DNA from: Escherichia coli | Lineage (GTDB): Bacteria > Pseudomonadota > Gammaproteobacteria > Enterobacterales > Enterobacteriaceae | NCBI RefSeq assembly: GCF_024700885.2 | Contig: NZ_CP117016.1 | DNA length: 64,000 nucleotides | Reading direction: 5' to 3' (one strand) | Notes under the pieces: generated by a model | Databases searched by the model: none | Seen by the model: only the letters and a program-made list of their open reading frames with translations | Told to the model about the DNA's origin: nothing | Position numbers and translations under genes: made by a program | Shown here: positions 1-17,540 of the stretch, one piece after another | Position numbering within the stretch: the stretch's first letter is position 1 | Layout: each line of letters begins with the position of its first letter

Positions 1-37
1 ATAATTAACACCGCAAAAAGTGCCAAAAATCGCAAAA

Positions 38-104
38 TGACTACACCAGTGACTACACCGTTCGGTGCACTGTATGAAACAACGTGGAACAAATAGACAC
101 AAGA
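38..104. repeat. Left-end repeat block: tandem gtgactacacc x2 followed by 10-bp phased AACAA repeats; near-identical block at 15068..15144
   Basis: tgactacaccagtgactacaccg at 38..60 is identical to 15068..15090; AACAA at 78, 88, 98. Confidence 0.6.
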
Positions 105-322
105 AATATACAGGCGGATCATCTTTCCAGGGGGAAGCACACCAATTCATGAGGGGCGTTAATGTCGATATGGGGATCCCCACCTACCGGAATTTTTTTC
201 CGGTTAAACGTTAATCAGGCTGGTGGGCTTTACCTGTTCGGTAGGTGTTATGATTATCGTAATACCTTTCCCCCAATGGGGTAAAAGCATCAACCGTAAC
301 GAAAGTCGTTATGGTTGCCACT

Positions 323-463
323 GATACCCCAAATTTGGGTATCACGAGTAAGCCCCAAAATCTGGGTGTTACTCTTACTACCCAAACTACGGGTAGTTTC
401 CGTAGTTTCATGGTCGAGTTGCAGATCTGCAACTCCCCCATTAACCACAGGCGAATTTCCGCC
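323..463. repeat. Cluster of inverted repeats (five or more hairpin-forming palindromes), function unknown
   Basis: gataccccaaatttgggtatc (323..343); ctacccaaactacgggtag (378..396); aaactacgg-gtagttt-ccgtagttt (384..408); perfect 20-bp palindrome gagttgcagatctgcaactc (415..434); ggcgaatttccgcc (450..463). Confidence 0.45.
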
Positions 464-689
464 TTCGGTCATTCCTTAATCATCTGCGTAATCATAATGA
501 TTATTCAGCAAGCGCAATTTTGCGCTTTGCTTAAAGTTCAGCGAGTTACCGCGCCGACTTCCTCAAATTGAGGTTTCCGAAAATATCAGCGGGTTAGCGA
601 TTAAGCTGACCATTAATTAAACTGCGAAAATGTCGTAGTTGTGAGGGGTGTAGCCAACCCATTTTTGGGCCGTCGGGAATATCAACCAG

Positions 690-971
690 TTACCGCCGCA
701 ACCGCTCCGGCTTCTTCCAGTGGTACGTTATTTTCTCCTTCTCCCGATACATCTCCACGCGGCGACGGTAGGCCAGCAACTCAAGAACTCTGGTTCGTAT
801 GTTGCGCATATCCACGCCATTAAGTTCTATACCATCACGGCGCATCACCTCAGCAACAACACGCGCATAGTTTTCGGCTGTCACGCTGTCCGGCTGCGTG
901 GCCTGTTCGTCAGCCTGCTGGCTGATTCCGGCAACGCGGCGGATTAATCCCGTTATTTCGGCTTCTGTCAT
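690..971 (-). CDS. Hypothetical protein, last gene of packaging operon
   Basis: 93-aa ORF starting 14 bp downstream of the terminase large subunit stop on the same strand. Confidence 0.5.
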   Translation of the reverse strand: MTEAEITGLIRRVAGISQQADEQATQPDSVTAENYARVVAEVMRRDGIELNGVDMRNIRTRVLELLAYRRRVEMYREKEKITYHWKKPERLRR

Positions 972-984
972 GCTGCTGACCTCA

Positions 985-2646
985 TTACACCCCGCTAAAT
1001 TCTTCCAGTTTCTGGCGGTGGCTGTCGCTTATATCAAAAGCAAAATCCTCATGCTCTGCCTGGAATGTACCAAACGCCATCAGCGCCGCCACGCTCGGGT
1101 CTATCTTGTTCGGTGATTTTTTCTTGTTCGGCTTGATATTGGCGTTCGCGTCACTCTGCATCACGACGTTACTCATCGACCAGGACAACACCGGATCGCC
1201 ACGATGCACAATCACCCTGCGGTTAACAAAAACTTCGAACGATTTCGCCGCCGGACTGAATCTGAGGTAGGTTTGCGGGAACGGCTCCACCTCAAAACCT
1301 GCCCCCTGTAATTGCGTTCTGAGATGCGTGGCGTTCCACGTATCAAAGCCCACCAGCCTGATATTAAATTTCTCCGCGTCCTGCATGATGTCATCTCTGA
1401 TCCGGTCGTAATCAATGCAGTCGCCAGGCGTTGTGCGTATCCAGCCTGCTTTAGCCCACTGACGATAGATGGCGCGGTTTTTATTGGCGGGGTTCTGTAG
1501 CTGAAATTCCGGCAGATAGTGACGGGAAACCAGCATAATGGTTTTACCGACCGGAAAGGCATAGCACACGCTGGAAATATCGCTGGTTGATGATAAGTCC
1601 AGCCCCGCGTAACACTCCTGGCCGTGTAAATCTTCCTCCGTGAACGTTCCGGCACACTCAGCCCATGCGCCGTTACCCATCCACGGGGTAGCCCCCTGGC
1701 ACCAGATATTAAATCGCTTTGTCATCATCTCCACCCACTGCGACGGAATACCCCGCGCTTTCTGGATGGTTGAGGCCAGTTTTTCACGATCGACGGAAAC
1801 ATCAATATTAGGGTTCGCCTTTATCCACATCGCCGGATCATCAACCTCGTTTTCGTCGTCCAGTTCGTAAATCAGTACAAAAATTGAATCGTTAACCTCT
1901 TCGCCGTCCAGGATCTGGCAGCAATAATCATAGTGCTGCTTACAGGCTGAAACGACGTTGCTGCCTGATGTGGTAATGGCAAATAACAGCCCTTCGGGAC
2001 GTGCGCCCATCCCCAGCTCAAGCGCGGAATAAACGCCGTTATCGGGGTGCAAGTGGTATTCGTCCACGATGGAAAGGCTGGGGTTTGTTCCCTCGATGGT
2101 TGCCGCTTTTGCTGCCAGCGGCTTTAACAGGCTGTTGCTTTTCGGGTGTATCACCTTATGCGCCTGAATATTCACCCGCCTGCGTAACGGTCGGGATAAA
2201 AGGCACATCTGACGCGCATCATCAAAGACGATCCGCGCCTGGTCACGGCTCACCGCTGCGGTGTAGATATCCTGCTGACCGTTCTCCATAATCAGAAACC
2301 AGTTAGCCAGAATCGCGGCGGTCGTGGATTTCGCATTTTTGCGCGGCACTTCGATAAAGGCGCTCGTGTATTTGCGCCGTCCGGTGGCCTTAACCTTAAA
2401 GCCGAGGATGCACGCAAAGGCGAACTGCTGCCACGGCTCCAGCTCAATGGGTCTGCCACGCATCGGTCCTTTTACGTGCGGGCACACCCTGGAAAAGGCA
2501 ATAAACCGCTCCACAACCTCACGATCGAACGTGTAAAGGGGGCTTTTAAGGTCCGAAAAGTACCGTTTAACGGCCTGTTTCAGCCGTTTACAGGCCGGAA
2601 TTTTGCCCGTTTTTACGTCTTCTGCGTACTTATTCCAGGCGGTCAA
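985..2646 (-). CDS. terL: Phage terminase large subunit
   Basis: 553-aa ORF with an N-terminal ATPase region and C-terminal nuclease-like region typical of Terminase_1 family; overlaps terS stop. Confidence 0.9.
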   Translation of the reverse strand: MTAWNKYAEDVKTGKIPACKRLKQAVKRYFSDLKSPLYTFDREVVERFIAFSRVCPHVKGPMRGRPIELEPWQQFAFACILGFKVKATGRRKYTSAFIEVPRKNAKSTTAAILANWFLIMENGQQDIYTAAVSRDQARIVFDDARQMCLLSRPLRRRVNIQAHKVIHPKSNSLLKPLAAKAATIEGTNPSLSIVDEYHLHPDNGVYSALELGMGARPEGLLFAITTSGSNVVSACKQHYDYCCQILDGEEVNDSIFVLIYELDDENEVDDPAMWIKANPNIDVSVDREKLASTIQKARGIPSQWVEMMTKRFNIWCQGATPWMGNGAWAECAGTFTEEDLHGQECYAGLDLSSTSDISSVCYAFPVGKTIMLVSRHYLPEFQLQNPANKNRAIYRQWAKAGWIRTTPGDCIDYDRIRDDIMQDAEKFNIRLVGFDTWNATHLRTQLQGAGFEVEPFPQTYLRFSPAAKSFEVFVNRRVIVHRGDPVLSWSMSNVVMQSDANANIKPNKKKSPNKIDPSVAALMAFGTFQAEHEDFAFDISDSHRQKLEEFSGV

Positions 2647-2986
2647 GCTCGTCCTCTTCTTCTGTTTCCGGTGGGTTTTTACGGCGGCTTATCGGGTCAA
2701 AACCGAGCAAGGAGGCCATTTTTATCATCACCCTTTCAGCGTCTGATTTCGCGCTTAATGCGGGGTTTCTGCTCTCGCCGCCCTGACTGTTAACAATGCT
2801 GAACCCGCGCGCCGCAAGGTCTGCGACGGCTTTCCGGTAAATGGAGTAGTTGACACAATACAGTTCCAGATTGCTCCAGTCGGCGGGGGTCAGGTCTCCC
2901 CGTTCCGCAAGCTGCCGCGATTTTTCCCGCCACTGCTTCACGGCGATGTCATCCAGGTAGGCGGGGGCTTTCGGTGGTCTTGCCAT
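2630..2986 (-). CDS. terS: Phage terminase small subunit (P27-like)
   Basis: 118-aa ORF immediately upstream of and overlapping terL; resembles P27-family small terminases with an acidic C-terminus. Confidence 0.7.
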   Translation of the reverse strand: MARPPKAPAYLDDIAVKQWREKSRQLAERGDLTPADWSNLELYCVNYSIYRKAVADLAARGFSIVNSQGGESRNPALSAKSDAERVMIKMASLLGFDPISRRKNPPETEEEDELDRLE

Positions 2987-3274
2987 GCTTATTTTTCGTC
3001 AGATTATTTTTCAAAAAATTCCCGTGCATAAAAATTTGAGGAGGCGTTCGGTGCCCGGCGGGGTCGGGTTTGTCCTGAAAACGCCCCCCACCCCGTCATA
3101 CAGCCTCATCAGCGATTGCGGAAACATTCCATAACCTCGCGGTCACGGTCGGTTAATCGCTTCGCTGTGATGCGTTCTGCGCGTCCTGACGCTTTATCTT
3201 TATGCCCTGTTTCCTGTGTCTTCCATGCGTCACGCTGCCTTATAAGTCCACGGATAAGGCGGTTTTGTTCCCGC
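2987..3274. other. Candidate cos/packaging site region between HNH gene and terS
   Basis: 288-bp non-coding gap in an HNH-cos-terS-terL arrangement (as in HK97-like cos phages); GC-rich segment cggtgcccggcggggtcggg...ccccccaccccgtc. Confidence 0.3.
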
Positions 3275-3715
3275 TCATTCATCAGCGTCATACATCCAGT
3301 TATTGCGGTTAGCGGCCCGTTCTTCCTCTTCACGAAATCCACCTGCGGCACGCTTGCTTTTTGTTGCCGGATCAAGCCATTTCGTTTTCTGGTTATGACA
3401 CGCCTGGCACAATGGTTGATGGTTCCATTCGGGCCAGAAGAGAACATCATCACCGCCATTAATCGGGATAATGTGATCCACCACCACGGCGGGCGTATAT
3501 ATCCCCTTCTCAAGGCATCGCACGCATAACGGGTTTTTACTCAGATACATGGCGCGGTATTTGTCCCACTGTCTGGAATATCCACGCGCGCGGCGGTGTC
3601 CTCGTCTGGCATCCTCTGCACGCCATGCCGCCCGCCTGTGCTCCTCACACTTGCCGGATTTAACGCGCCTGTTACAGCCTGGTTCTGTGCATCGTCTTAA
3701 TGGTTGCCACGGCAT
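3275..3715 (-). CDS. HNH endonuclease (terminase-associated)
   Basis: 146-aa ORF with Cys pairs and the DHIIP...N..LC..CH..K HNH motif, positioned upstream of terS. Confidence 0.85.
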   Translation of the reverse strand: MPWQPLRRCTEPGCNRRVKSGKCEEHRRAAWRAEDARRGHRRARGYSRQWDKYRAMYLSKNPLCVRCLEKGIYTPAVVVDHIIPINGGDDVLFWPEWNHQPLCQACHNQKTKWLDPATKSKRAAGGFREEEERAANRNNWMYDADE

Positions 3716-4011
3716 CAGTACACCCCCACATCACGGTAAGCCGTCCAGAGTGCGCCTATCGTCATGGGTACGCGTGTTTTTGCGTTATCCGCGACAATCT
3801 GGCGATTTTCATACAGGTGAGCGATAAACATCATGCAGCCAATCTTTATGGCTGGCGTGAACTCCAGCCCGTCATCAAAGCGCCTGCCTATGTGTATCTG
3901 GCACGCCTCAAGCGATGCGGCAATGTATCCGCTGATTAACTGGTCTTCATCGTCGCCATCGATGCGGCAATGGAGTTTCACTTCTTCCAGGGTGATAAGT
4001 TCTTCTGTCAT
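3715..4011 (-). CDS. Head-tail connector protein (gp6-like)
   Basis: 98-aa ORF, MTEELITLEEVK... resembles phage gp6-like head-tail connector family; translationally coupled to neighbours. Confidence 0.65.
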   Translation of the reverse strand: MTEELITLEEVKLHCRIDGDDEDQLISGYIAASLEACQIHIGRRFDDGLEFTPAIKIGCMMFIAHLYENRQIVADNAKTRVPMTIGALWTAYRDVGVY

Positions 4012-4346
4012 TTTTCCGCGCCCTCACGACAAAGAATTTCAAGGCGTGTCCTGGCGGCATCCGGCAGCGGCTGCCCGATGATATTCAGTACACGCCCCGC
4101 CAGCGGCCCCGTACTGACCTTTATCCGGCTGGTGGCGTTGATGTCCTTCCGGTACCGTATCCAGATCCTTACGGTACCAATCGCCAGCTCTGCGCCCGAT
4201 GAAATGGCCTCCTTGCTGCTGACCATGTTCACGCTTGCCCAGAGTGTGTGACCGTCCTCCCACGTTTCGAGTATTTCGCCGGTTATATCCCTGGTCTGTT
4301 TCAGGGTCTGAATCGTTATCCTGTCACGCAGTCGCCCTATGTTCAT
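4008..4346 (-). CDS. Head-tail adaptor / head closure protein
   Basis: ORF 4008..4388; probable start MNIGRLRDRITIQ at 4346, directly after portal stop, typical N-terminus of head-tail joining proteins. Confidence 0.65.
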   Translation of the reverse strand: MNIGRLRDRITIQTLKQTRDITGEILETWEDGHTLWASVNMVSSKEAISSGAELAIGTVRIWIRYRKDINATSRIKVSTGPLAGRVLNIIGQPLPDAARTRLEILCREGAEK

Positions 4347-5554
4347 TCCGGTTTTTCTCCCTCGCTGATTTTTACTTCCTGTTTCCATGCCTGGCTGAAC
4401 TCATCACCACCATCACGCGGTGACAGACCTTCACGTTCGCGGGCTTCGTTCGGACACATAACGCCGGATTTGATGCCGCGCTCATAGGTGGCAAAGCGTT
4501 CGCCAGGTGTGGCCCGTAACAGGTCCGCGCTGTCAAACTCCACCTGATACCGGATACCAGGTACAGGCGAGGCCACCAGCAGGGCGTTTTTTATCTGCTG
4601 CTCAAAGTTCGCCAGCCACGGGCGCATCGTCATGGTGAGAAATGCGCGGCTTGCCTCGCTGAAATTGCTGTAGGTGCTGTTGCTGTATTCCTGCAAAAAA
4701 ATCGGCGAGACGTTGAACATTCGGGCGATGTCTTCAATGGTGAAGCGACGGGAGGCCAGCCATTCAGCATCCTGATTACTCATGCCCAGCTGCTGATAGC
4801 TCATACCCCCTTCAAGGATGGGCGTTTTTCCGGCGTTTCTGGCCCCTTTGTAGCGTTCCAGTGCGGCTAATGCCTGTTTGCCCTTCACGCCGTCCAGCCA
4901 TTCGCCTGACGTGATAACCCCTGCCGCCATCATGCCATCACGCATCACGCTCGCGCCGTGGCGTTGTTGGGCCAGCCCAAGCCCCAGCGATTCGCGGCAG
5001 ATGGTTACAGGTGAGCACCCCATAAAGCCGTCATCCGTGGAGTAACGAAGGTGAAGTACTTCCCACGGTAAATAGTTGCGGGTGTTTCCGGTGTAGGCGT
5101 CAGTGATGCAGTAGCGCCAGTTGTGTTCGCCTGTCTGCTCCACGTTCACCGACTGCGGCGGGTAAGGATGTAAAGCCGCCGGAAAACCATCACGCCCCCA
5201 CTGAATCACCGCATAAGCATTACCGTTTAACAGGCAGTGGCGGATCATCATTCGCTTAAACTGGTAGGGGGTTTGCCATGCGTTCGGGCGCTCGTTGAGG
5301 ATGTGATCGACCGGATGAGAATCAAGCCACTCGCGGGCCTCCTTCCCCTTCTCATTGCGTACCAGGTACAGGTAACACGGCATGGTAGCCACCGCCTCAG
5401 AGATGACCGTCACGGCGTTCATGACGGCGGGCAGTGATTCCGCTGTCCCCGATGATACGTACTCACCCGCCCCCGTGTTCGATGTGCCAGCCAGCGCCAT
5501 AAATTCATCCAGCGTCATGCTGCGCTGCTCTTTTTTTCTTCTGAAAGGCCACAT
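4343..5554 (-). CDS. Portal protein (HK97 family)
   Basis: 403-aa ORF sitting between the prohead protease and adaptor genes, resembling HK97-family portal proteins. Confidence 0.85.
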   Translation of the reverse strand: MWPFRRKKEQRSMTLDEFMALAGTSNTGAGEYVSSGTAESLPAVMNAVTVISEAVATMPCYLYLVRNEKGKEAREWLDSHPVDHILNERPNAWQTPYQFKRMMIRHCLLNGNAYAVIQWGRDGFPAALHPYPPQSVNVEQTGEHNWRYCITDAYTGNTRNYLPWEVLHLRYSTDDGFMGCSPVTICRESLGLGLAQQRHGASVMRDGMMAAGVITSGEWLDGVKGKQALAALERYKGARNAGKTPILEGGMSYQQLGMSNQDAEWLASRRFTIEDIARMFNVSPIFLQEYSNSTYSNFSEASRAFLTMTMRPWLANFEQQIKNALLVASPVPGIRYQVEFDSADLLRATPGERFATYERGIKSGVMCPNEAREREGLSPRDGGDEFSQAWKQEVKISEGEKPE

Positions 5555-5555
5555 A

Positions 5556-6128
5556 TCACACCCCCGCTAAATCCACCCACCAGCGGCGATTATCCGCACG
5601 CGGCATTTTTTCGGGGTGCTGCTCATACAGGGAACGGCGGGCCAGCTCCACGCCGGAATCGGGGTAAGCCGGTACCGATGTAACGGTAATTTCGTACAGT
5701 TCCGCCACCAGCACGGTGCGCACGCATGGATCTGTTGTGGTATCCCATACATCCTTACGGGAGCGAAAGCCAAAGCTCATCCCCGAGATGTCCCCACGCT
5801 TAACCAGTTCGATAACGTCGCGCCCTGTACTGGTATCCGGTGGGGTCAGTTCAAAGCGTAACCCTGTTTCGTCCTCTTCCAGTTTCAGCGTGCCGGAACG
5901 GGTGCGCCCCAGTAACATGCTGTGGTCATGCTCATACAGGCCGCGAACGTCATTACCCGCCGCAAGCCACTCAGTAAACGCCCCCCGCTGGAATTTTTCG
6001 TAAAACTCCCCCCATAGCAGTTCTGAAAGCTTATCCCAGCGAACAACGTAGCCCGTCAGCGTACCGGCTCCGCTGGTAGTGATTTCCGATGACCGGATTT
6101 CCATACTCTTCATAATTTTTTCACCCAT
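5556..6128 (-). CDS. Prohead maturation protease (HK97 family)
   Basis: 190-aa ORF immediately downstream of the capsid gene, resembling HK97 prohead protease. Confidence 0.85.
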   Translation of the reverse strand: MGEKIMKSMEIRSSEITTSGAGTLTGYVVRWDKLSELLWGEFYEKFQRGAFTEWLAAGNDVRGLYEHDHSMLLGRTRSGTLKLEEDETGLRFELTPPDTSTGRDVIELVKRGDISGMSFGFRSRKDVWDTTTDPCVRTVLVAELYEITVTSVPAYPDSGVELARRSLYEQHPEKMPRADNRRWWVDLAGV

Positions 6129-6167
6129 AAAACACTAAAGGGGCTTTTAAGCCCCTTCTGTATGCTG

Positions 6168-7325
6168 TTAATCGTCGTCCTGTGGCAGTTCCAGAATCTT
6201 GATCGCGTTCGAATCCACCACGCCACCGCCTAAATATTTCTGCGTGAAAATTTTGATGAAGCCCGGCTCTGTGAGGTTGTCCGGTCTGGTGCGAACACCT
6301 GTTTCGTGATCAACAATGTAGTAACCGCGTTTGAAGTCACCCAGGGCAATAACGTTATCCGGCATAAACTCCAGATATTCGACCGGAAGGCCCAGTAACG
6401 TATCAGGATCACCCGCCTGTAAACGGTCGCGCCAGATGTAATCACCGTTCGCGTTCTTCACCTTCTGAAGTTTTGCCGCCGTCGTGGAGTTAACCACCCA
6501 GACCGCGTTTTTGCGGTATTTTTTACGTAATGCAAATTTCAGGTCGATCAGCGGGTCCGCAGATGTCCACGCCAGAGATTCGGAAGGTTTAATTACCTGC
6601 AACGTACCAAAATCACGCTCTTTGTCGTTCTTCTCTGCACGGGGTACGGATAAAAAGCCTTTTGCTTTTTTGTCACCGTCGCCCACAACCAGATCGCTTT
6701 CTTCGGTTTCCGTGAAGTTGTCGCCAATCTCGCCCGTCAGCCATGAAAGGATGTCCACATCGGAAAAATCCACGATTTCCTGCGTGGTGCGCGGGTACGC
6801 ATAGACCGGATACAGCTTAATGCTCACCTCGTTAATCTGCGGGGTGCTGGTCTGTTCGCGTGCCTTACCCTCTTCACCGTGGTTAACGGTCGCACCGCCA
6901 GCGGAAACAAGCTGCTTAAACTCGTTGCTGCTGATTTTCTTCACGGTACAGATGCGGCGCATGGTGGATTCATCCGTCAGCATTCGCATGATTTCGGTGT
7001 TCAGTTCGGGGATAACGGTATAACCACCATCAGCGGGAACGCCTGTACTTAATGCGCGGGTTTCACCTGTCAGAATGTAGTGACGTAGTTCGGCTGGGTC
7101 AGTGGTCTGACTGCTTTTACCTGGCTTGCTGCGCTCTTCGTCTGCAATGGCTTCAAGGCGGGAAATGTCTTTATCGAGGGATTCAGCTTTAGCGCGTAAT
7201 TCGTCAAATTTTGCGCCCTCAGCATCGTTAAGACTGCGGTTTTCTTTTTCCGCGTTCTCCAGCATGTCGCGCATCTGATTTTTAATGGCGGTTTTCTGCT
7301 GGCGTAATTCGATTATTCTCGGCAT
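6168..7325 (-). CDS. Major capsid protein (HK97 fold) with N-terminal delta/scaffold domain
   Basis: 385-aa ORF with a coiled-coil-rich N-terminus followed by HK97-like capsid region. Confidence 0.85.
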   Translation of the reverse strand: MPRIIELRQQKTAIKNQMRDMLENAEKENRSLNDAEGAKFDELRAKAESLDKDISRLEAIADEERSKPGKSSQTTDPAELRHYILTGETRALSTGVPADGGYTVIPELNTEIMRMLTDESTMRRICTVKKISSNEFKQLVSAGGATVNHGEEGKAREQTSTPQINEVSIKLYPVYAYPRTTQEIVDFSDVDILSWLTGEIGDNFTETEESDLVVGDGDKKAKGFLSVPRAEKNDKERDFGTLQVIKPSESLAWTSADPLIDLKFALRKKYRKNAVWVVNSTTAAKLQKVKNANGDYIWRDRLQAGDPDTLLGLPVEYLEFMPDNVIALGDFKRGYYIVDHETGVRTRPDNLTEPGFIKIFTQKYLGGGVVDSNAIKILELPQDDD

Positions 7326-7584
7326 AAAAAAAGTCCTGGGGTTAAGTAAGGAACTCCAGGACGCGGCAAAAACTCAACCGTTTTTCATAAGGAAATCAGC
7401 AATCGCACCGATCGTTTTCCCGCCTGGTAATGAATATTGGCGAGAACATTAACAGGCGGAAAAGTGGCCCCAGCGTCCTGGCACCACGGGCGAGAATAAT
7501 CATGATTCAGTTCGGGTAAAATATGCCGATCCGCTCAGTGAACAACGTGGAACAACCACGAACAAATAATTTACAAAACATGAC
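7326..7584 (-). promoter_or_regulatory. Upstream region of capsid/packaging operon containing 10-bp phased AACAA repeats (7541..7565)
   Basis: 259-bp non-coding gap between an upstream terminator and the capsid start; gtgaacaacgtggaacaaccacgaacaa. Confidence 0.45.
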
Positions 7585-7605
7585 AAAAAGCCGGATTGCT
7601 CCGGC
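7585..7605 (-). terminator. Rho-independent terminator ending the replication/early operon
   Basis: Minus-strand hairpin gccggagcaatccggc followed by TTTTT, immediately after the stop of the 93-aa ORF. Confidence 0.6.
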
Positions 7606-7612
7606 TGTGTGA

Positions 7613-7894
7613 TTATCTGTCCTGGTAATTTCGCCATATTTCATTACCAGCACCATCCATACCCATTTCGGCATAAGTGCGATCGACCGCCTTTTTCAGG
7701 TCTCCGTAGTTATCCGGCGGCTCCGGTGGCCTCTGTGCCTTCCTGGAACATTCCAGCCGTCGCATCGTGATGTGATGCCGTTCCTTGTCTGTCTCCACCA
7801 GTTGCATGACTTCACCCCATCGCGCCGACGCTCTCCGGTAAAAGCCTTTCGCCTCCAGTTCTTCCGCTATGCGGTCATGTACCATCGTCCCCAC
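7613..7894 (-). CDS. Hypothetical protein
   Basis: 93-aa ORF in operon with the SSB gene. Confidence 0.5.
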   Translation of the reverse strand: MGTMVHDRIAEELEAKGFYRRASARWGEVMQLVETDKERHHITMRRLECSRKAQRPPEPPDNYGDLKKAVDRTYAEMGMDGAGNEIWRNYQDR

Positions 7895-7897
7895 CCC

Positions 7898-8308
7898 TCA
7901 GAACGGAATATCATCACCGTAAGGGTCATCGCCTCCCGCTGGTGGCTGATTACCCTGTGTGCCTGTGGTCTTGCGTCGGCTCCCACCAGGACGTGCCGCA
8001 CGGGCACTGATTACGCTGTCTGCAATAACCTGATAACCCTGCCGCGTTTCCCCGTTCTGTCCGGTCCACTGGCTGACCTGCATCGTGCCGGATACGCTGG
8101 CAACGTCGCCTTTTTGATGTTTAGCCAGGAAGTCGGCCTGCTTACCAAATGCGATGACCGATAGCCATAACGTCGCCTGTCCATCCTGTGCCTGGCTGCA
8201 TGGCAGCGATACCGCCATACGCGCCAGCGTCATCGGTGTACCCTTGCTGGTCTGTTTTACCTGCGGGTCGTCCACCAGCCGCCCGTAAGCTGCTATCTGT
8301 GCTGTCAT
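7898..8308 (-). CDS. ssb: Single-stranded DNA-binding protein (SSB-like)
   Basis: 136-aa ORF with OB-fold-like core, Gly/Pro-rich linker and C-terminal DDIPF tail as in bacterial SSB. Confidence 0.75.
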   Translation of the reverse strand: MTAQIAAYGRLVDDPQVKQTSKGTPMTLARMAVSLPCSQAQDGQATLWLSVIAFGKQADFLAKHQKGDVASVSGTMQVSQWTGQNGETRQGYQVIADSVISARAARPGGSRRKTTGTQGNQPPAGGDDPYGDDIPF

Positions 8309-8583
8309 GATTCCACCTCTCCGGTTTTAACGTTGATGGTTGTTACCTGTTCCGCTTCGGCAATCTCCCGCTCTGTCAGCGTGGCAAAATTTGCCGCCGT
8401 CGTGGTCATGAATGCGCTTATCAGTTTGGGATGTGCTTTCGCGTATCCTTCCCCCGCGTGGCGGTCTATCGTTCTGATTGCCACCTTTAAAGCGTGCTCT
8501 GTCATGTCTAACGCGCGATATTTCGGTTCTGTTCTGTCTCTGCGTTTTTTGAGTGATTTATTAAATTTCCCTGAAGTGTGCAT
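8305..8583 (-). CDS. Hypothetical protein
   Basis: 92-aa ORF between the iteron origin and the SSB gene, overlapping the SSB start. Confidence 0.5.
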   Translation of the reverse strand: MHTSGKFNKSLKKRRDRTEPKYRALDMTEHALKVAIRTIDRHAGEGYAKAHPKLISAFMTTTAANFATLTEREIAEAEQVTTINVKTGEVES

Positions 8584-8629
8584 ATTTATTTTTACCCCCT
8601 CGTTTAAAAAGTTTTGAGTTGTGCCTCCC

Positions 8630-8860
8630 CTTGTCTACCTTATCTACCTTAGTGGCCCTCATACCAGTAATGGCGCGGCTTTCAGCGGGGTAGAGTGCTT
8701 TTATCCACTATCTACCCCGTGTCTACCTCCCTGTCTGATTCAGGTAAAATCAGGTAGAGAGGGTAGATAGTGGGTAGACAGTAAAAAAAGGTTATCTACC
8801 TAACTTAATGCACTGAATTAAATGTATTTTTCTTTACTCAGGTAGACAGGGTAGACAGCA
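8630..8860. repeat. Iteron array, putative island replication origin
   Basis: Ten or more copies of T(A/G)TCTACC in both orientations (e.g. tgtctacct, tatctacct, caggtagagagggtagatagtgggtagacag, caggtagacagggtagacag) immediately 3' of the primase gene. Confidence 0.7.
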
Positions 8861-8871
8861 ATTACAAAAAA

Positions 8872-10626
8872 TTATAAAAACGCGTCGCACTCGTCTGTTG
8901 TTATTGCGTTAGTCTGCGTTACTCCCTTAACTTTCCGCGTAATATATTCATGTCCGTAAACTTTCGCGGCTGGCTTCATAGCCTTGCCAAAGTCATTTAC
9001 GTTTAGCGGTTTGCTCCTGCCTGCGTACGCCATAAACGCCAGATAGACGCGGTAAAGGCTGTTTCTGGTCGTGTACTTCACTGAATCGCCACCGCCGCCC
9101 ATCATCAGGCCGCGTGCTTCCTCCAGAAAATTCAGGAACTGGCAAAACTCAATAACCGGATCCGTCTGTTGCTTTATTGCCAGAGCTTCATCACCGTCAC
9201 GCTGTTCCAGTAGTAAAGCCCGTGCCTTCTCAGGGTCGGTAAAGTTCGCCAGCAATCGGCGGATAATGACAGGGATTTCAGCCGCGATCTTTTCCGGTAG
9301 CTCCCTGTCTTTTTCGGCCTCACTGACGATATTGTCGAAACGGAAAATCACGCGACGACGTGCCACACCTCCGGCCCGTTCGGTGAATATCATCGGGTTA
9401 TTGTTGGTCGCCAGCACCACCGCCCTGATTACCGCCGTGAAACGCTTTTCGTATTTCGGGTTAATTTCCACGGGGTCACCGCCCGTGATTTTCTTGATGC
9501 CCGTTCCTTCGCCTGTATATTTCGGCTGGTCAGCCAGGACGATAAGACGACTCCCGACAACCTGCGCACGTCCACCAGCATCATCAAGCGATGTCATTTC
9601 AGCGCTTACCGTGTTCTGTTTCCCTGCCAGAAGGCTGGCTATGTGTGTGAATGTACTTTTACCGCTCCCGCCGTCTCCGGTGGCCTCAATAAACATCTGC
9701 CAGTCGTACCGGTTCGCCATAATCATGTACAGCGCGGCACATATACGCATCATCTTGCGCGGGTCTTTTCCGGCTGCGTGCTCAAGCCATTTATGAAAGT
9801 TTGGCGCGTTATCGCGGATGTTCTCCCCTGGTGCTGGTGGCGTGTACTCAATGCCGTTGTGCGTGGTGATCCAGTTCTCCGGCGTGTGCGGGGAAAATTC
9901 CCCCGTTTTCAGGTCAAGCGCACCATTGGCGAACGGCAACAAATCGCCGGACGGCTCGCCCATTGGTTCGGCAATAACTTTTAACGCTTCCACGGCGTTA
10001 TTGATTACGCGCTTGCTGAAAGTGGCCCTGTGCTCTGAATAGATCGCCACCATTTCGCGGCTAAGTTCCATTGTGCTGACCGGACACCATACCCCGCCGC
10101 GCCATACGTGAACGATTTCACTTTCAGGATGTACGCAAACGCCATCAAAGCGATCGGCAAGCAGTTGCGCGCGCTCACTGTCCGCCATCTGCGAAAGTTG
10201 CGCCTTTTGCTTTACCGGAAGCTCAATGACCAGACCATCAGAAAGATTCTGGCGCTCACGGGCCAGATATTCGCGCCAGTTCTCCACCTTCTGACCGTGC
10301 ATACCATCAGGGTAAAAATTTGCATCCTGTACGCCTGCCGCCGCCAGCTTCTGACCAATCGCCTTTATCATTACTGGCGCAAGATATCCGGCCCTGAATA
10401 TGCGCACGGATTTTCTGCCTTCCGGCACAATTTGCAGCTTATCCAGTTCGGATAACTGCTGCTCCCCAAGCCACACAGGAGGCTCATTATCTCCGGCCAT
10501 ACGCGCGTCATGTTCCTGCCATTGTTTTGCGTGTGACCAGGCATCACTACCCGCAAAAATAATGACTTCTGTTTCTTTGTGTTTTATGCCGCGTGACTGC
10601 TGTTTTACGTTCGGTGCCAGTTTCAT
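8872..10626 (-). CDS. Replication initiator: phage/plasmid primase with D5/P4-type NTPase (helicase) domain
   Basis: 584-aa ORF with Walker A GDGGSGKST and downstream motifs typical of P4-family primase C-terminal domain; followed by iterons. Confidence 0.8.
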   Translation of the reverse strand: MKLAPNVKQQSRGIKHKETEVIIFAGSDAWSHAKQWQEHDARMAGDNEPPVWLGEQQLSELDKLQIVPEGRKSVRIFRAGYLAPVMIKAIGQKLAAAGVQDANFYPDGMHGQKVENWREYLARERQNLSDGLVIELPVKQKAQLSQMADSERAQLLADRFDGVCVHPESEIVHVWRGGVWCPVSTMELSREMVAIYSEHRATFSKRVINNAVEALKVIAEPMGEPSGDLLPFANGALDLKTGEFSPHTPENWITTHNGIEYTPPAPGENIRDNAPNFHKWLEHAAGKDPRKMMRICAALYMIMANRYDWQMFIEATGDGGSGKSTFTHIASLLAGKQNTVSAEMTSLDDAGGRAQVVGSRLIVLADQPKYTGEGTGIKKITGGDPVEINPKYEKRFTAVIRAVVLATNNNPMIFTERAGGVARRRVIFRFDNIVSEAEKDRELPEKIAAEIPVIIRRLLANFTDPEKARALLLEQRDGDEALAIKQQTDPVIEFCQFLNFLEEARGLMMGGGGDSVKYTTRNSLYRVYLAFMAYAGRSKPLNVNDFGKAMKPAAKVYGHEYITRKVKGVTQTNAITTDECDAFL

Positions 10627-10922
10627 TTTTTACCCCTGAATCCGTTAATCATGGTTTTCAGCTTCTGGATGTTTGCCCGTGCCCTGGCGTTGCTGGTGGA
10701 CACGTTATGCGGCGCGGTCTGTACCAGAGAAAAATCACGCCGGAACTGATAAACAGGCATCACGCAATCATATTCGTAACCTTCACGGCGGTAGGTTACG
10801 CGCCGTTCTTCCACGCCCTTAATCATTACCGTGCCGCCGTACTGGTCGCGGTAAATATCGCCGCGCGTAAATTTAGGGTGAGTGTTGCCACTGGCAGTTA
10901 AGCCAGAATATTTAAGTTTCAT
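10623..10922 (-). CDS. Hypothetical small protein (accessory operon gene 7)
   Basis: 99-aa ORF whose stop overlaps the primase start (ATGA). Confidence 0.5.
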   Translation of the reverse strand: MKLKYSGLTASGNTHPKFTRGDIYRDQYGGTVMIKGVEERRVTYRREGYEYDCVMPVYQFRRDFSLVQTAPHNVSTSNARARANIQKLKTMINGFRGKK

Positions 10923-10927
10923 TATTT

Positions 10928-11161
10928 TTATTCTCCGGTGTGCTGTTCTTTATATCTGTCGTGCAATAGATCTATTTCTTGCAGTTCCATTATTACAGGC
11001 TCAAGAAGCGTTATTAATGCCGTGGCAATTCTTGATTTTTGTTTGTCGCGTTCATTGTCGCCAAGTGTTTCAAGCCATATGCGCAATATTTCCAGCATGT
11101 TTTCACTGTGAGAAAGTGCAAGAAATGCGCGGTCTATTGTTTCGTGGTAAATATCACGCAT
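10928..11161 (-). CDS. Hypothetical small protein (accessory operon gene 6)
   Basis: 77-aa ORF, same strand, tightly packed. Confidence 0.45.
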   Translation of the reverse strand: MRDIYHETIDRAFLALSHSENMLEILRIWLETLGDNERDKQKSRIATALITLLEPVIMELQEIDLLHDRYKEQHTGE

Positions 11162-11387
11162 GGCTTACATCCTCAGGAAATTTTCTTCTATAACGCGCCT
11201 CTGCCACATATTCCGCATAATCGGCGGCGATATTCAGTACATCAAGCCCCGTTGATTTATATTCTCTCGTGGAAAGTAAGAAAAAAGCCGCTCTAATAAG
11301 TTCTGGCATTGACGAAAGCGCATCAGCCGCATCATCAGGAACGCCGGAAAATTCCTGTTTCAGGGAATTAAAACGATCATCACGCAT
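11154..11387 (-). CDS. Hypothetical small protein (accessory operon gene 5)
   Basis: 77-aa acidic ORF overlapping its neighbours by 8 bp. Confidence 0.45.
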   Translation of the reverse strand: MRDDRFNSLKQEFSGVPDDAADALSSMPELIRAAFFLLSTREYKSTGLDVLNIAADYAEYVAEARYRRKFPEDVSHA

Positions 11388-11763
11388 GTTTACCCCCCTG
11401 AATGACCTGATAACCGCAACTGGTCAGCAACTCGATAAATTCCGGCAGTGTGCCGAAACAGCAATCATCACGCAGCCGTTCACAGGATACCTCGACGCCG
11501 TTTTCGTAGTGACTCACCATACATCCGGTAAAATGCAGATCATCATCGTGATGGCTCGTTGACGGCTTAATCAGTCGCGCACGTTCCGCCAGTTCCAGCA
11601 ATGCTTCAACGCTTCCGGCAATTGCACCATCCGGCAGGTGATAATTACGCACTATGCGCCCGTTCTCCACATTGACCAGCAACTGCCCGGTAAATTTCTC
11701 ATCAAACTGAATGCTGTTAAGGTCAGAAATTGACAGATTATGCATGGTGCACCTCCTGCACAT
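11380..11763 (-). CDS. Hypothetical protein (accessory operon gene 4)
   Basis: 127-aa ORF; start may be the internal Met at 11745 (MHNLSI...). Confidence 0.5.
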   Translation of the reverse strand: MCRRCTMHNLSISDLNSIQFDEKFTGQLLVNVENGRIVRNYHLPDGAIAGSVEALLELAERARLIKPSTSHHDDDLHFTGCMVSHYENGVEVSCERLRDDCCFGTLPEFIELLTSCGYQVIQGGKHA

Positions 11764-12016
11764 CAGCCATGATAATTTTTCCGGCCTTATCCAGTGCCTG
11801 ATCGGCTTTTAGCTGCACAAATGCTAAATAATGGAAGATGCATTCTGATTCTCTGGCTGCGTGTTTATGCGCCCTGTCAGCAATAACAGAAATATCAATA
11901 AGCGCGTGCATCAGCGTAGTGAGCGCGGCGGCGGCTGCGTCCGGTGTGGTTTTATTGCACATGTACCCCTCCGCATTTTTTTTCGTTAGAAATAAGCGTT
12001 CTTCTTTCCTGTTCAT
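11738..12016 (-). CDS. Hypothetical small protein (accessory operon gene 3)
   Basis: 92-aa ORF; start may be the internal Met at 11962, which would remove most of the overlap with the upstream gene. Confidence 0.45.
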   Translation of the reverse strand: MNRKEERLFLTKKNAEGYMCNKTTPDAAAAALTTLMHALIDISVIADRAHKHAARESECIFHYLAFVQLKADQALDKAGKIIMADVQEVHHA

Positions 12017-12182
12017 CGCTCAGGAATACGCAGACCTCACCGCTAAGGCGTTTAAGTAAGCCGATGATTGCCCCTGATTCGCTGTCGGTCATCATGCCAG
12101 GGTAATCCTCTGCCAGTGCGCAAATAACTTCGATTTGGTGGGCGCGTTCTGCTGCCTGTTGTAGTGTGATTTCCTGGCTCAT
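11952..12182 (-). CDS. Hypothetical small protein (accessory operon gene 2)
   Basis: 76-aa ORF, start overlaps the stop of the upstream gene. Confidence 0.45.
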   Translation of the reverse strand: MSQEITLQQAAERAHQIEVICALAEDYPGMMTDSESGAIIGLLKRLSGEVCVFLSDEQERRTLISNEKKCGGVHVQ

Positions 12183-12379
12183 AAGCCTACCCCCTGACGA
12201 ATACGGGCAGCAAATACCATCACGCAGCCAGCCGGAGATTGCTGGCGTGCTTCCTGTTCGCTGGTGGCCTCAATGGTAATCACGCGCGGTTGTGCCGTGC
12301 TCAGGGCGATAAAACGCCAGATGTATTTATTCAGGTTGTGCGAGTCCCGCCCTTGCGGGTGTGTGGTATGATTTCTCAT
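12179..12379 (-). CDS. Hypothetical small protein, first gene of leftward operon (Cro-like position)
   Basis: 66-aa ORF starting MRNHTT at 12379; the 340-aa ORF in the track is read-through across the regulatory region. Confidence 0.4.
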   Translation of the reverse strand: MRNHTTHPQGRDSHNLNKYIWRFIALSTAQPRVITIEATSEQEARQQSPAGCVMVFAARIRQGVGL

Positions 12380-12476
12380 AGCTACCTCGATACTTTCGCT
12401 ATCGTTGGTGGTTAGAAGCCCGGTTAGTGTTAGCGCACTGCCGGGTTTCGTCGTTTCTGCACCTTGCGCCAACAAG

Positions 12477-12528
12477 GTGTTGAACACCAATTTAAACCCA
12501 GGTGTTAAACACGTCAAGTGTTGAACAC
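12477..12528. promoter_or_regulatory. Three palindromic operators GTGTTnAACAC between divergent promoters
   Basis: gtgttgaacac (12477..12487), gtgttaaacac (12502..12512), gtgttgaacac (12518..12528) in the gap between divergent gene sets. Confidence 0.6.
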
Positions 12529-12578
12529 TTATTTTTTTTCCTGCATACTGCATTTGTTTTTTATGAGGGGTACACCAC

Positions 12579-12758
12579 ATGGCGACAAAAGCGGTAAACG
12601 CAAAATCACAAACCGTTGCGGCAAGGGTTCCGCATGAAGTTATGAACAATGTTGAGGCGGTAAAAATGCCTGGCGAAAGTACGGGGCAATTTGTTACTGC
12701 GGCATTAAAACGAGAAGTTGAATATCGCCAGCGGCGCAAGGCCAAAGAACCAGAGTAA
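12579..12758 (+). CDS. Putative ribbon-helix-helix transcriptional regulator
   Basis: 59-aa ORF (below the track cutoff) with a Shine-Dalgarno-like gagggg upstream; beta-strand/helix/helix pattern typical of Arc/MetJ/CopG family; adjacent to operators. Confidence 0.5.
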   Translation: MATKAVNAKSQTVAARVPHEVMNNVEAVKMPGESTGQFVTAALKREVEYRQRRKAKEPE

Positions 12759-12800
12759 TCACCATCAGCGCCGTGGTGTAAGGTATTACGGCGCATTGCT

Positions 12801-12989
12801 ATGCAGGACAACACAATGACCGATAAAGAATTGACCAAAACATTATCACCGGCACGGAAAAGACGGCGCAGAAAGATAGAGCATGAATCAGAAAGATTCG
12901 CGCCATGTGCTTTTGCCCTTGAGCAATTCCTTAAAGAGTACAGGGAAAAGCGCTCATTGCAGGTATGGCAACGAACTGAACCAGACTGA
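12801..12989 (+). CDS. Hypothetical small basic protein
   Basis: 62-aa ORF downstream of the RHH gene on the same strand, followed by a terminator. Confidence 0.4.
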   Translation: MQDNTMTDKELTKTLSPARKRRRRKIEHESERFAPCAFALEQFLKEYREKRSLQVWQRTEPD

Positions 12990-13083
12990 TTGCATTGCCC
13001 ACCAGCCTGATAACGGCTATCATCCCCGTGCTTATGTTTGGGATCACACACACAAACGGCGCAGCGGGTTATCTGTTCAGAAA

Positions 13084-13113
13084 GGCGGCTCCATTTCGGG
13101 GCCGCTTTTTTTA
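13084..13113 (+). terminator. Rho-independent terminator of rightward regulatory transcript
   Basis: Hairpin gcggctcc-attt-cggggccgc followed by TTTTTTT. Confidence 0.55.
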
Positions 13114-13258
13114 TACCTGAAAAACCCCAATTTTGTTGTTTTTCAGTTTCACCAGGGCGAACGAATCCCCGCCCACGTTCTGGCGTATATTCAATCTTCA
13201 TGGTTATAGCTCTGTGTTCAGATGATTGATGTGTGGCGGCTGCGTGCCGCCAGCGTGA

Positions 13259-13528
13259 TTAATGAACTGCCTTGCAGCTATCCTTCCAGGCCAGAACCTC
13301 GGATAAAGACCAGCCAACGGAACGACCGCCAAGTTTACGACGTGATGGGAATTGTCCGGCCTTTTCCAGGCGGTAGCGACACGTACGGCTAAGGCCGGTT
13401 AGTTTTTCGCATTCTTTTTCACGTATAAACCGATCAGTGCTTAACACTATTGCCCCCCTTTCGTTTCTTAAAGAGTCATCAGGTGTCTTATTGTGTCGTA
13501 TTGTTCCCGCTAGAGTGATGAATGGCAA
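13259..13528 (-). CDS. alpA: AlpA-family phage transcriptional regulator / excisionase-like
   Basis: 89-aa ORF; C-terminal region ...LTGLSRTCRYRLEKAGQFPSRRKLGGRSVGWSLSEVLAW matches AlpA-family pattern; adjacent to int; true start may be downstream. Confidence 0.8.
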   Translation of the reverse strand: MPFITLAGTIRHNKTPDDSLRNERGAIVLSTDRFIREKECEKLTGLSRTCRYRLEKAGQFPSRRKLGGRSVGWSLSEVLAWKDSCKAVH

Positions 13529-13720
13529 ATACTGAGGATGTATGATTTACAGAAAATGAAACAGTAAGAATAAAATTTTTTAAATTCATGTTAATACAAA
13601 GGCATAAAATATTGTTCCATGCCTTTTTTCTCGCTCTTTAAAGAGTGATTCGCTAGTGTACAAAAAACCAGTAACGCATTAAAAATCAGCTACTTATAAA
13701 TCCGTACGCTTTTTCGCCTC

Positions 13721-13765
13721 TTGTTCGTAGTTGTTCCACATTGTTGCTCATTGTTGCACGTTGTA
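13721..13765. promoter_or_regulatory. Five 10-bp phased TTGTT repeats (reverse-complement of AACAA array) between int and alpA
   Basis: ttgttcgtag ttgttccaca ttgttgctca ttgttgcacg ttgta at exact 10-bp spacing. Confidence 0.5.
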
Positions 13766-13812
13766 TCTGTTCGCATATCCAGTATGCGCATACTGAAAAA
13801 ACACGAAAAAAA

Positions 13813-15042
13813 TTATTTTCTTCTGGCTACGGGTAGCGTGGTTACGTTTTCATGTGTTCCCGCCAGTATCCCTAACCGCTCCGTCCACATATCCAGCGCA
13901 TTGCGTTTCGCATCCAGATAACGGGAATGATTATAAACTCGCTGCATTCCTGGCATCTGGTGGCCTGTAAGCTGCTCCACGACATGCGGATCAACGCCTA
14001 AATCGTTCAGCATGGTTGTAAAGGTGCGCCGGATGTCATGCAGTGACCAGTGAGGGTGATTAAGCCTCCTGTACGCTAATCTTCCATACTGCGATACGCT
14101 GGCCTCCTGTTTCACTTCCCCCAGCAATAAGCCCGTGTGCCTGTTCTGCTCCACCAGCTGCGTGACGAACGGCAGGATCGCTTCCGGTATGGGCCGGAAT
14201 ATTGCGACCTTCGTTTTGCTGTGCTCCTTCGGAACGGTCCATAGCATTTCCGTAAAATCCCACTCCCCGATCTCCGATAACCTCAGTTCTACCGTTCTGG
14301 CTCCGAAGACAATCAGGAGGCGGATTAACGCGACGTAGTAAGGGGAGAATATTTTTTTGTCCAGTGCCTGCAATAATTCGCCAAGTTCTTTGTTACTTAA
14401 GACACGTTCGCTTATATCCGGTTTTTTCCCAACGTCCGCAACGTTCAGATCGTCCAGAACGTTGCTGATTGCATAGCGCCGCCTACGGCAGAACTTAAGC
14501 GCCTGTTTGCACGCCTGTAGCACGAATCCGGCAGTAACAGGCGTTCGCTTTGCCACCTGGTCAAAACAGGCCAGCCAGTGCCGTAGCTCGCATTTATCCA
14601 GCGGCATAGCACCAATCTGCTGTATTACGTGATTATTAAGTCGCCTTTTCAGGGCGATATAATCCACGCGGTTTTCCTTTACGTAATACTCAAGCCAGTA
14701 GGTGAGCGCATCGCCAACCGTTACGGGCTTTAACGCTTCCTGTACGGTGTAATTCATCTCATGACGTGGATTTTTCCCCTCAGCCAGCCATGTGCGACAC
14801 TGTGCGGCTTTTTCCCTGGCTGCTTTCAGGCTCAGATCAGGATAACTTCCCAGCTTAATGCGTTCGGGTCGTGTCTCCCTTCCCGTTCCGGCCCTGTATG
14901 TGAAATACCAGGTCAATTTCCCTGATGTTAAATATTTCACGCTCAGGTTTCCGCCATCACTATAAAACGTGTTTTTCTCCGCTGGCTTACCATGAAGTTT
15001 CCTTAGCAAGGTATCGCTCAGTTTGTTCATTGCTCTGCTCAC
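13813..15042 (-). CDS. int: Tyrosine-type site-specific integrase (P4-like)
   Basis: 409-aa ORF with catalytic-domain motifs (HDIRRTF, GHQ, VYNHSRY) at the island end next to the chromosomal junction. Confidence 0.92.
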   Translation of the reverse strand: MSRAMNKLSDTLLRKLHGKPAEKNTFYSDGGNLSVKYLTSGKLTWYFTYRAGTGRETRPERIKLGSYPDLSLKAAREKAAQCRTWLAEGKNPRHEMNYTVQEALKPVTVGDALTYWLEYYVKENRVDYIALKRRLNNHVIQQIGAMPLDKCELRHWLACFDQVAKRTPVTAGFVLQACKQALKFCRRRRYAISNVLDDLNVADVGKKPDISERVLSNKELGELLQALDKKIFSPYYVALIRLLIVFGARTVELRLSEIGEWDFTEMLWTVPKEHSKTKVAIFRPIPEAILPFVTQLVEQNRHTGLLLGEVKQEASVSQYGRLAYRRLNHPHWSLHDIRRTFTTMLNDLGVDPHVVEQLTGHQMPGMQRVYNHSRYLDAKRNALDMWTERLGILAGTHENVTTLPVARRK

Positions 15043-15067
15043 GTTTTACCCCCTCTTTACGAAAAAG

Positions 15068-15144
15068 TGACTACACCAGTGACTACACCGATCGTTGCAC
15101 AAAGGGCTACAACGTGAAACAAGCTGGAACAAGGAAAATCACAA
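15068..15144. repeat. Right-end repeat block, copy of 38..104
   Basis: tgactacaccagtgactacaccg (15068..15090) then phased AACAA at 15118, 15128, 15140. Confidence 0.6.
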
Positions 15145-15215
15145 ATCTATTGATAATCAAAAACATAATGCACAGCCTGAAACATTATGAAACAGCAAAA
15201 AACACTAAATGATAA

Positions 15216-16124
15216 AATGCTGTTATTCTTAACCCGCTGGTGCAACACATGGTCCGCTGGCGTGTGCCGCGTGTACTGGCAGTGTCGATTTTGATGACCA
15301 TCATCGTGATGGCGATGGTGTTGCTGTTAGCTTATCTGGGTTCCGCACTCAACGAGTTGACGCGGACGTTACCGCAATATCGCAACTCTATTATGACGCC
15401 GCTGCAAGCTCTTGAACCGTTGTTGCAACGCGTAGGGATTGACGTCTCAGTTGACCAACTGGCGCATTACATTGATCCGAACGCGGCGATGACGTTGCTC
15501 ACCAACTTATTGACGCAGTTATCTAATGCCATGTCATCAATCTTTTTATTGCTGCTGACGGTGCTGTTTATGCTGCTCGAAGTGCCACAATTGCCCGGAA
15601 AATTTCAGCAAATGATGGCGCGTCCGGTTGAAGGGATGGCGGCGATTCAGCGTGCGATTGACAGTGTGTCTCATTATCTGGTGCTGAAAACAGCCATCAG
15701 CATCATCACCGGCCTGGTCGCCTGGGCGATGCTCGCCGCACTCGATGTTCGCTTCGCTTTTGTCTGGGGATTGCTGGCCTTTGCGCTTAATTACATCCCG
15801 AATATTGGTTCAGTTCTCGCGGCAATCCCCCCTATTGCTCAGGTACTGGTGTTTAATGGCTTCTACGAAGCGTTGCTGGTGCTGGCGGGATATCTGCTGA
15901 TTAATCTGGTCTTCGGCAATATTCTGGAGCCACGCATCATGGGGCGTGGGCTGGGGCTTTCCACATTGGTGGTATTTTTGTCGTTGATTTTTTGGGGATG
16001 GTTGTTAGGACCGGTGGGTATGCTGCTTTCCGTGCCGTTGACAATTATTGTCAAAATTGCGCTTGAACAAACAGCGGGAGGTCAAAGCATCGCCGTTCTG
16101 TTAAGCGATCTCAATAAAGAGTGA
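15216..16124 (+). pseudogene. tqsA: tqsA (AI-2 exporter) truncated at 5' end by island insertion
   Basis: Reading frame matches TqsA from about residue 47 ([13 protein letters not shown]...) to the native stop; in-frame stop at 15213..15215 and island sequence upstream; N-terminal 46 codons and promoter absent from window. Confidence 0.8.
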
Positions 16125-16144
16125 CGGCCTCCGCAGAGGCCGTC
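16123..16144. terminator. Hairpin between convergent tqsA and pntB
   Basis: gacggcctc-cgca-gaggccgtc; no strong T-run. Confidence 0.35.
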
Positions 16145-16148
16145 AGGG

Positions 16149-17540
<1,392 letters not shown>

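Follow-up and report, generated by a model that had tools for sequence, protein, structure and literature searches.

A predicted capsid-forming PICI splits the tqsA gene of Escherichia coli

Capsid-forming PICIs (cf-PICIs) were described in 2022-23, with EcCIEDL933 as their prototype (Alqurainy et al., bioRxiv 10.1101/2022.09.08.507074). Experiments on EcCIEDL933 demonstrated AlpA-mediated induction by a helper phage, the formation of small capsids and the use of helper tails for transfer (bioRxiv 10.1101/2022.09.08.507074). Classical PICIs have no more than one or two genes for capsid or packaging functions and rely on the capsids of their helpers. Those of the EcCICFT073 type are built on an int-alpA-pri backbone with one-directional transcription and PerC-type regulators, and occupy att sites that are not used by prophages (Fillol-Salom et al. 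2018, PMC6092414).

Gene-splitting integration, although a minority strategy, is well known. Mageeney et al. 2020 (PMC7192596) name Listeria phi10403S in comK, B. subtilis skin in sigK and SPbeta in spsM, S. aureus phi13 in hlb and the Stx phages in mlrA (yehV). In these classical cases integration is site-specific and lies within a coding sequence, and precise excision restores the gene. The E. coli gene tqsA has itself been reported as a target: Bobay et al. 2013 (PMC3603311) count it among the genes disrupted by integration, and Mageeney et al. 2020 (PMC7192596) give three islands of 11, 15 and 16 kb found with TIGER (Eco282.16.tqsA, Eco33.11.tqsA and Eco557.15.tqsA).

We analysed a stretch of 64,000 nucleotides of E. 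coli DNA (hereafter the window) in which an island lies within tqsA. The window is 100% identical to the genome of its source, E. coli MLI114 (NZ_CP117013.1, reverse strand), from which the left junction was read (locus L001; window position = L001 position - 5301). This junction is 37 bp away from window position 1, on its 5' side, and the window thus opens 37 bp inside the island. The TIGER islands share with the window case the target gene, the disruption of the UPF0118/AI-2E domain and a size of 11-16 kb, which fits the 11.4-kb classical PICI and the 15-kb cf-PICI found at tqsA in the present work. The two earlier papers, in the parts of their text at hand, do not class these elements as PICIs or cf-PICIs, and the likeness is one of gene and size. 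The insertion into tqsA is real but already described, and neither the kind of element nor the mechanism is new.

Gene content and class of the island

The annotated features that define the island are listed below, each module being followed by its genes.

13813..15042, minus strand: tyrosine integrase (int), 409 aa (PHROG phrog_1, E=7e-72; RefSeq WP_032153848.1)
13259..13447, minus strand: alpA-type helix-turn-helix excisionase/regulator (phrog_2790 'excisionase and transcriptional regulator', E=8e-18; RefSeq)
8872..10626, minus strand: primase/replication protein (pri-rep), 584 aa (phrog_864, E=1e-175)
7898-8308, minus strand: single-stranded DNA-binding protein (RefSeq, PHROG search)
7613-7885, minus strand: PerC-family regulator (RefSeq, PHROG search)
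3715..7325, minus strand: head module (phrog_10, phrog_80, phrog_12; RefSeq)
6168-7325, minus strand: major capsid protein, HK97-type (head module)
5556-6128, minus strand: HK97-type prohead protease (head module)
4343-5554, minus strand: portal (head module)
4008-4346, minus strand: head closure (RefSeq name)
3715-4011, minus strand: head-tail connector (RefSeq name)
985..3715, minus strand: packaging module (phrog_144, phrog_83, phrog_9)
3275-3715, minus strand: HNH endonuclease (packaging module)
2630-2986, minus strand: small terminase, TerS (packaging module)
985-2646, minus strand: large terminase, TerL (packaging module)

Across the island, the PHROG matches have E-values of 1e-18 to 1e-179 and are consistent with the RefSeq names. 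For the head and packaging genes the values lie between 1e-39 and 1e-179, and their order fits the layout of cf-PICIs of Proteobacteria (bioRxiv 10.1101/2022.09.08.507074). Read from the right junction (attR), the order is int, AlpA, an icd-like region with small ORFs, primase, SSB, PerC, major capsid protein, protease, portal, head closure and connector, HNH, TerS and TerL. The minus strand holds every island gene but two, a small ylcI/ynfO gene and a doubtful ORF of 60 aa, and int is transcribed away from the tqsA fragment. The integrase sequence contains the tyrosine-recombinase motif LHDIRRT and a C-terminal Y, and it is at most 50% identical to any integrase of a deposited phage. By annotation, none of the 27 genes from one att core to the other, 26 CDS and an icd-like pseudogene, has a tail or lysis name.

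The PICI backbone int-alpA-pri-rep thus stands at one end of the island and points in one direction, as in cf-PICIs. Since the island combines its own head and packaging set with int, alpA and a primase and is devoid of tail and lysis genes, its gene content predicts a capsid-forming PICI, that is a phage satellite and not a prophage; the word lysogen, used for this strain in an earlier note on the same DNA, has to be dropped. The window island was compared with EcCIEDL933 by way of L003, an EcCIEDL933-type island of 15.4 kb from O157:H7. Both are about 15 kb long and contain int, alpA, icd-like, pri-rep, ssb, perC, major capsid protein, protease, portal, connector, HNH, TerS and TerL genes, with no tail or lysis genes, and 76% of the window island aligns with L003 at 95.6% identity. 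They differ in the replication protein, which is of the DUF927 type in L003 versus the 584-aa primase of the window island. With the EcCICFT073-type PICIs the element shares the int-alpA-pri backbone, the one-directional transcription, a PerC-type regulator and an att site not used by prophages (PMC6092414); unlike classical PICIs, it has its own full head and terminase set.

Some further features of the island were noted. The PerC-family regulator sits in an apparently non-LEE strain. An ORF of 340 aa (12179-13201, minus strand) consists of icd-like pieces, annotated in RefSeq as a pseudogene (12754-13201) and a short icd-like gene, and this region looks partly decayed. Positions 110-690 are conserved in related islands and might hold a packaging (cos) site. 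The island query has a second match in NZ_CP117013.1, which suggests another PICI-like element in MLI114. A replacement AI-2E transporter carried by the island itself was considered and discarded, as the island has no such gene.

Junctions, att sites and the split of tqsA

The features of the two junctions are as follows.

L001 5256-5264 (window -45..-37), off-window: attL core, identical TGCTGTTAT
1..15217, minus strand: island body (its first 37 bp and the attL core precede window position 1)
38..59, plus strand: P'-arm, two copies of TGACTACACC, contiguous with the P-arm and core in an excised circle (L009, below)
15068..15089, plus strand: P-arm, TGACTACACC in duplicate between the start of int and the core, a putative arm-type site for binding of the integrase
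15210..15215, plus strand: tandem in-frame stops TGA TAA, two codons 5' of the first native tqsA codon
15218..15226, no strand: attR core TGCTGTTAT, 9 bp, tqsA nt 129-137, codons 43-46
15219..16124, plus strand: tqsA 3' fragment, codons 44-344 and stop (RefSeq 'AI-2 transporter TqsA, missing N-terminus')

The sequences around the core read:

attB (empty site, K-12 W3110): ...tttatTGCTGTTATtcttaac...
attL: ...tttatTGCTGTTATatataac...
attR: ...gataaaaTGCTGTTATtcttaac...

The earlier note had proposed that an island insertion splits tqsA, and both junctions, the 9-bp core and the empty site in K-12 W3110 bear this out. A megablast search of 5,426 complete E. coli genomes revealed that uninterrupted tqsA homology begins at window position 15218 in thousands of genomes, practically all of them. 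In the alignment with K-12 W3110 this position is tqsA nt 129, at codon 43/44, and the native codons 44-344 are kept to the right of the junction. The frame is thus intact to its stop, as had been claimed, but it starts at codon 43/44 and not at about codon 47, three codons off. The in-frame stop said to precede it turned out to be two tandem stops; the DNA 5' of them is island DNA, with the integrase start and the arm sites, in agreement with the note. Since the right-side homology opens at nt 129, the alternative that it begins at the native start codon fails.

At the left junction, the tqsA start is normal and the gene is native up to codon 46 (L001). The earlier note had left open whether an intact tqsA is recreated there. 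None is rebuilt: attL encodes TqsA 1-46 followed by eight foreign residues and a stop (YNLFRITH*), a product of 54 residues. When attL and attR were joined in silico, a 344-aa TqsA was obtained that is 100% identical to that of K-12, with 13 synonymous nucleotide differences. The tqsA copy of the window is a fragment, flagged as such by RefSeq. Its longest remaining ORF (15240-16124, 294 aa, GTG start) covers positions 52-344 of the 344 positions of the NCBIfam family NF008930, compared to 1-344 for K-12 TqsA. Next to the fragment on its 3' side are pntB and pntA, both encoded on the other strand, and the rest of the window, from pntAB through ydhK, is ordinary core chromosome.

Alignment of the junctions with the uninterrupted allele, a check proposed in the earlier note, defined the core as TGCTGTTAT, a 9-bp direct repeat that bounds the insert and is the same in four carrier genomes. 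From core to core the island measures 15,263 bp. Exact copies of TGACTACACC are confined, within the 64-kb window, to the two island arms, with two copies in each; the chance expectation over 64 kb is 2.2 matches at one mismatch or less. These pairs are putative arm-type sites of the integrase. At 9 bp the core is short, and the core-type binding sites that surround it show only weak symmetry. A 76-nt direct repeat (34-109 and 15064-15139) was considered as a possible trace of a second island in tandem; it is formed by the P' and P arms of one and the same element. A tRNA scan of the window found none and the site is thus not linked to a tRNA; a scan of positions 1-17000 against Rfam returned no known RNA family. 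The core at both junctions, the empty sites, the attP form described below, the integrase and the arm sites together make up the picture of attB x attP integration by a tyrosine recombinase.

Recurrence across genomes and a sister integrase

The site is uninterrupted in 5,167 of the 5,422 complete E. coli genomes that have the locus, and the exact attR junction is present in 241 of 5,426 (about 4%). Carriers include O26, O103:H2, some O157:H7, ST1193-type, avian and canine isolates. The insertion is intragenic, which the earlier note considered unusual; the oddity is not new, given the papers of 2013 and 2020 and the number of carriers. Twelve sampled carriers represent at least six tqsA allele backgrounds, and tqsA-site integrases are 95-100% identical among the carriers compared. 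The island of MLI114 differs from that of the ST1193 strain MDBZ1340 (L006) at 5 of 15,272 nucleotides, while the flanks differ by 1.9%. Such near-identical islands between divergent flanks point to recent horizontal spread into the same core. Together, the number of backgrounds and the mismatch between island and flank divergence indicate that integrases of one tight clade have inserted their elements at this position independently. The same tqsA core is also occupied in strain 2011C-3911, by a classical PICI of 11.4 kb whose integrase is 95% identical.

An excised form was recognized in the IMG/VR contig IMGVR_UViG_3300045988_152974 (L009), which is circular, with a terminal overlap of 119 bp and a length of about 10,979 bp. 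P-arm, core and P'-arm are contiguous in this contig. Its int/P-arm region is 98.7% identical to the window, the match stops at 15226, the last base of the core, and one contig end coincides exactly with the first base of the 9-bp core. We predict that L009 represents the attP of an excised relative, a classical PICI of about 11 kb and not the window island itself. Outside E. coli, a strict exact-match pattern of P-arm plus core gave no match in the GTDB one-per-species representatives.

In O157:H7, both cf-PICIs and classical PICIs carry an integrase that is 91% identical to the window integrase (13813-15042). These islands sit in the phoQ-roxA intergenic region, at the core ATATGTCC, and disrupt no gene (L003, 2446-2520 and 17880-17990; L004). 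In the attP of the phoQ-roxA group, ATATGTCC is flanked by a perfect GATAAAA/TTTTATC inverted repeat. Up to GATAAAA the P-arm is conserved between the two site groups, which diverge in the core and in about 22 nt of the P'-arm. The integrases of the two groups show 28 fixed differences, all located before residue 249 and 17 of them in residues 5-58, that is in the N-terminal and core-binding parts. As the sister integrase has an intergenic site, intragenic targeting is not fixed in this integrase lineage.

Fate of tqsA and alternative readings

We consider it highly probable that the insertion in tqsA is a cf-PICI of 15,263 bp brought in by its own integrase, that TqsA is most likely not made, and that this represents a tolerated loss of function. 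The tyrosine integrase of the island would recombine attP with the 9-bp core at tqsA codons 43-46. The 5' fragment would stay under the native promoter and yield TqsA 1-46 with its eight foreign residues, and the 3' fragment (codons 44-344) would be left behind two stops with no promoter detected. A crude consensus search of 14900-16200 found no sigma-70-like promoter, and inspection by eye of the DNA before the GTG at 15240 revealed no Shine-Dalgarno-like sequence. No annotated island gene points toward the fragment, with the exception of an ORF of 60 aa (15030-15212, plus strand) that ends at the tandem stops. RefSeq names it 'hypothetical protein' (WP_001332680.1). Spanning the arm repeats in the reading frame of the tqsA fragment, it runs over the int start of the other strand and matches no family; it is unlikely to be a true gene. 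Read-through from an ORF of 95 aa in the tqsA frame (14925-15212) was also discarded, as the two stops close this ORF, which overlaps the int start and has no family match.

The fragment is devoid of the TqsA helix H1 and of the first half of H2. H1 (Thr7-Phe29) forms the main contact of the TqsA pentamer and H2 is a horizontal helix (PMC9475539). Loss of tqsA function is very likely in view of the two stops, the failure of these searches to find a promoter or a Shine-Dalgarno sequence, the divergent int, and the loss of H1 and half of H2. Work attributed to Herzberg et al. in 2006 reportedly found tqsA to be dispensable and its deletion to raise biofilm formation. E. coli also has the paralogous AI-2E transporters YdiK and YhhT (PMC9475539). 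A dispensable gene with such paralogues would explain why the insertion is tolerated, and the outcome may be as simple as the loss of a non-essential gene. Given YdiK and YhhT, the statement of the earlier note that AI-2 export would be inactivated is to be kept in the conditional. In principle the insertion would be reversible, recombination of attL with attR restoring wild-type tqsA. By analogy with related islands, excision would be tied to activation of AlpA by a helper phage, that is to transfer of the satellite.

A different reading is regulated gene integrity (active lysogeny), in which the satellite acts as a reversible switch that excises in living cells and tqsA was selected for that purpose. 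For the elements in comK, sigK, spsM, hlb and mlrA, experiments have established that excision is regulated and takes place in living cells. Unlike them, the element of the window is a presumably helper-dependent satellite. That precise excision restores an intact ORF, that the element splits a coding domain, and that integrases of a tight clade, with at least 95% identity, have used the same intragenic core in several backgrounds would all fit a switch, and tqsA is listed as an RGI candidate by Mageeney et al. 2020 (PMC7192596). Nine of the 12 sampled fragments are also free of nonsense mutations and frameshifts; a recent insertion, to which the near-identical island in divergent hosts points, would leave intact fragments just as well. 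The other three fragments, of a single allele group (L006, the ST1193 strain MDBZ1340, with L012 and L013), carry S298* together with L108I. In these genomes excision would not restore tqsA, and the gene is decaying. Excision of PICIs is, moreover, normally coupled to induction by a helper phage, which ends in lysis (bioRxiv 10.1101/2022.09.08.507074), and the target of the 91% identical sister integrase is intergenic. We regard a switch as improbable. Similarly, there is only a slim chance that the choice of tqsA is adaptive, a reversible knock-out of AI-2 export altering the quorum-sensing or biofilm state in favour of encounters with helper phages, or excision switching AI-2 export in living cells.

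It is still far less probable that the 3' fragment is expressed from an island or cryptic promoter and from GTG51 or ATG54 as a truncated, functional AI-2 exporter. The ORF of 294 aa is uninterrupted and retains the C-terminal domain with two helical hairpins implicated in substrate binding (PMC9475539), but it lacks the main pentamer contact H1, and two stops lie directly 5' of it with no promoter-like site or Shine-Dalgarno-like sequence found; int is divergent, and the only annotated island gene facing the fragment is the 60-aa ORF closed by these stops. Finally, a decayed prophage remnant instead of an autonomous type of satellite, to which the phage-type head and terminase genes and the two annotated icd-like pseudogene pieces might point, is hardly credible, as O26, O157 and ST1193-type genomes contain the same compact layout of about 15 kb with its genes intact, the island shows the int-alpA-pri order and one-directional transcription of PICIs and fits the published definition of cf-PICIs, and integrases of deposited phages do not exceed 50% identity to its own.

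About one in 22 complete E. coli genomes carries the exact junction and has no intact tqsA. The split gene matters for the reading of AI-2, biofilm and pseudogene data from O26, O103:H2, some O157:H7 and ST1193-type strains. For one clade of PICI integrases, a fully mapped set of attB, attP, attL and attR is now available, and the pair formed by the tqsA and phoQ-roxA integrases is a convenient natural system for the study of a change in site specificity.
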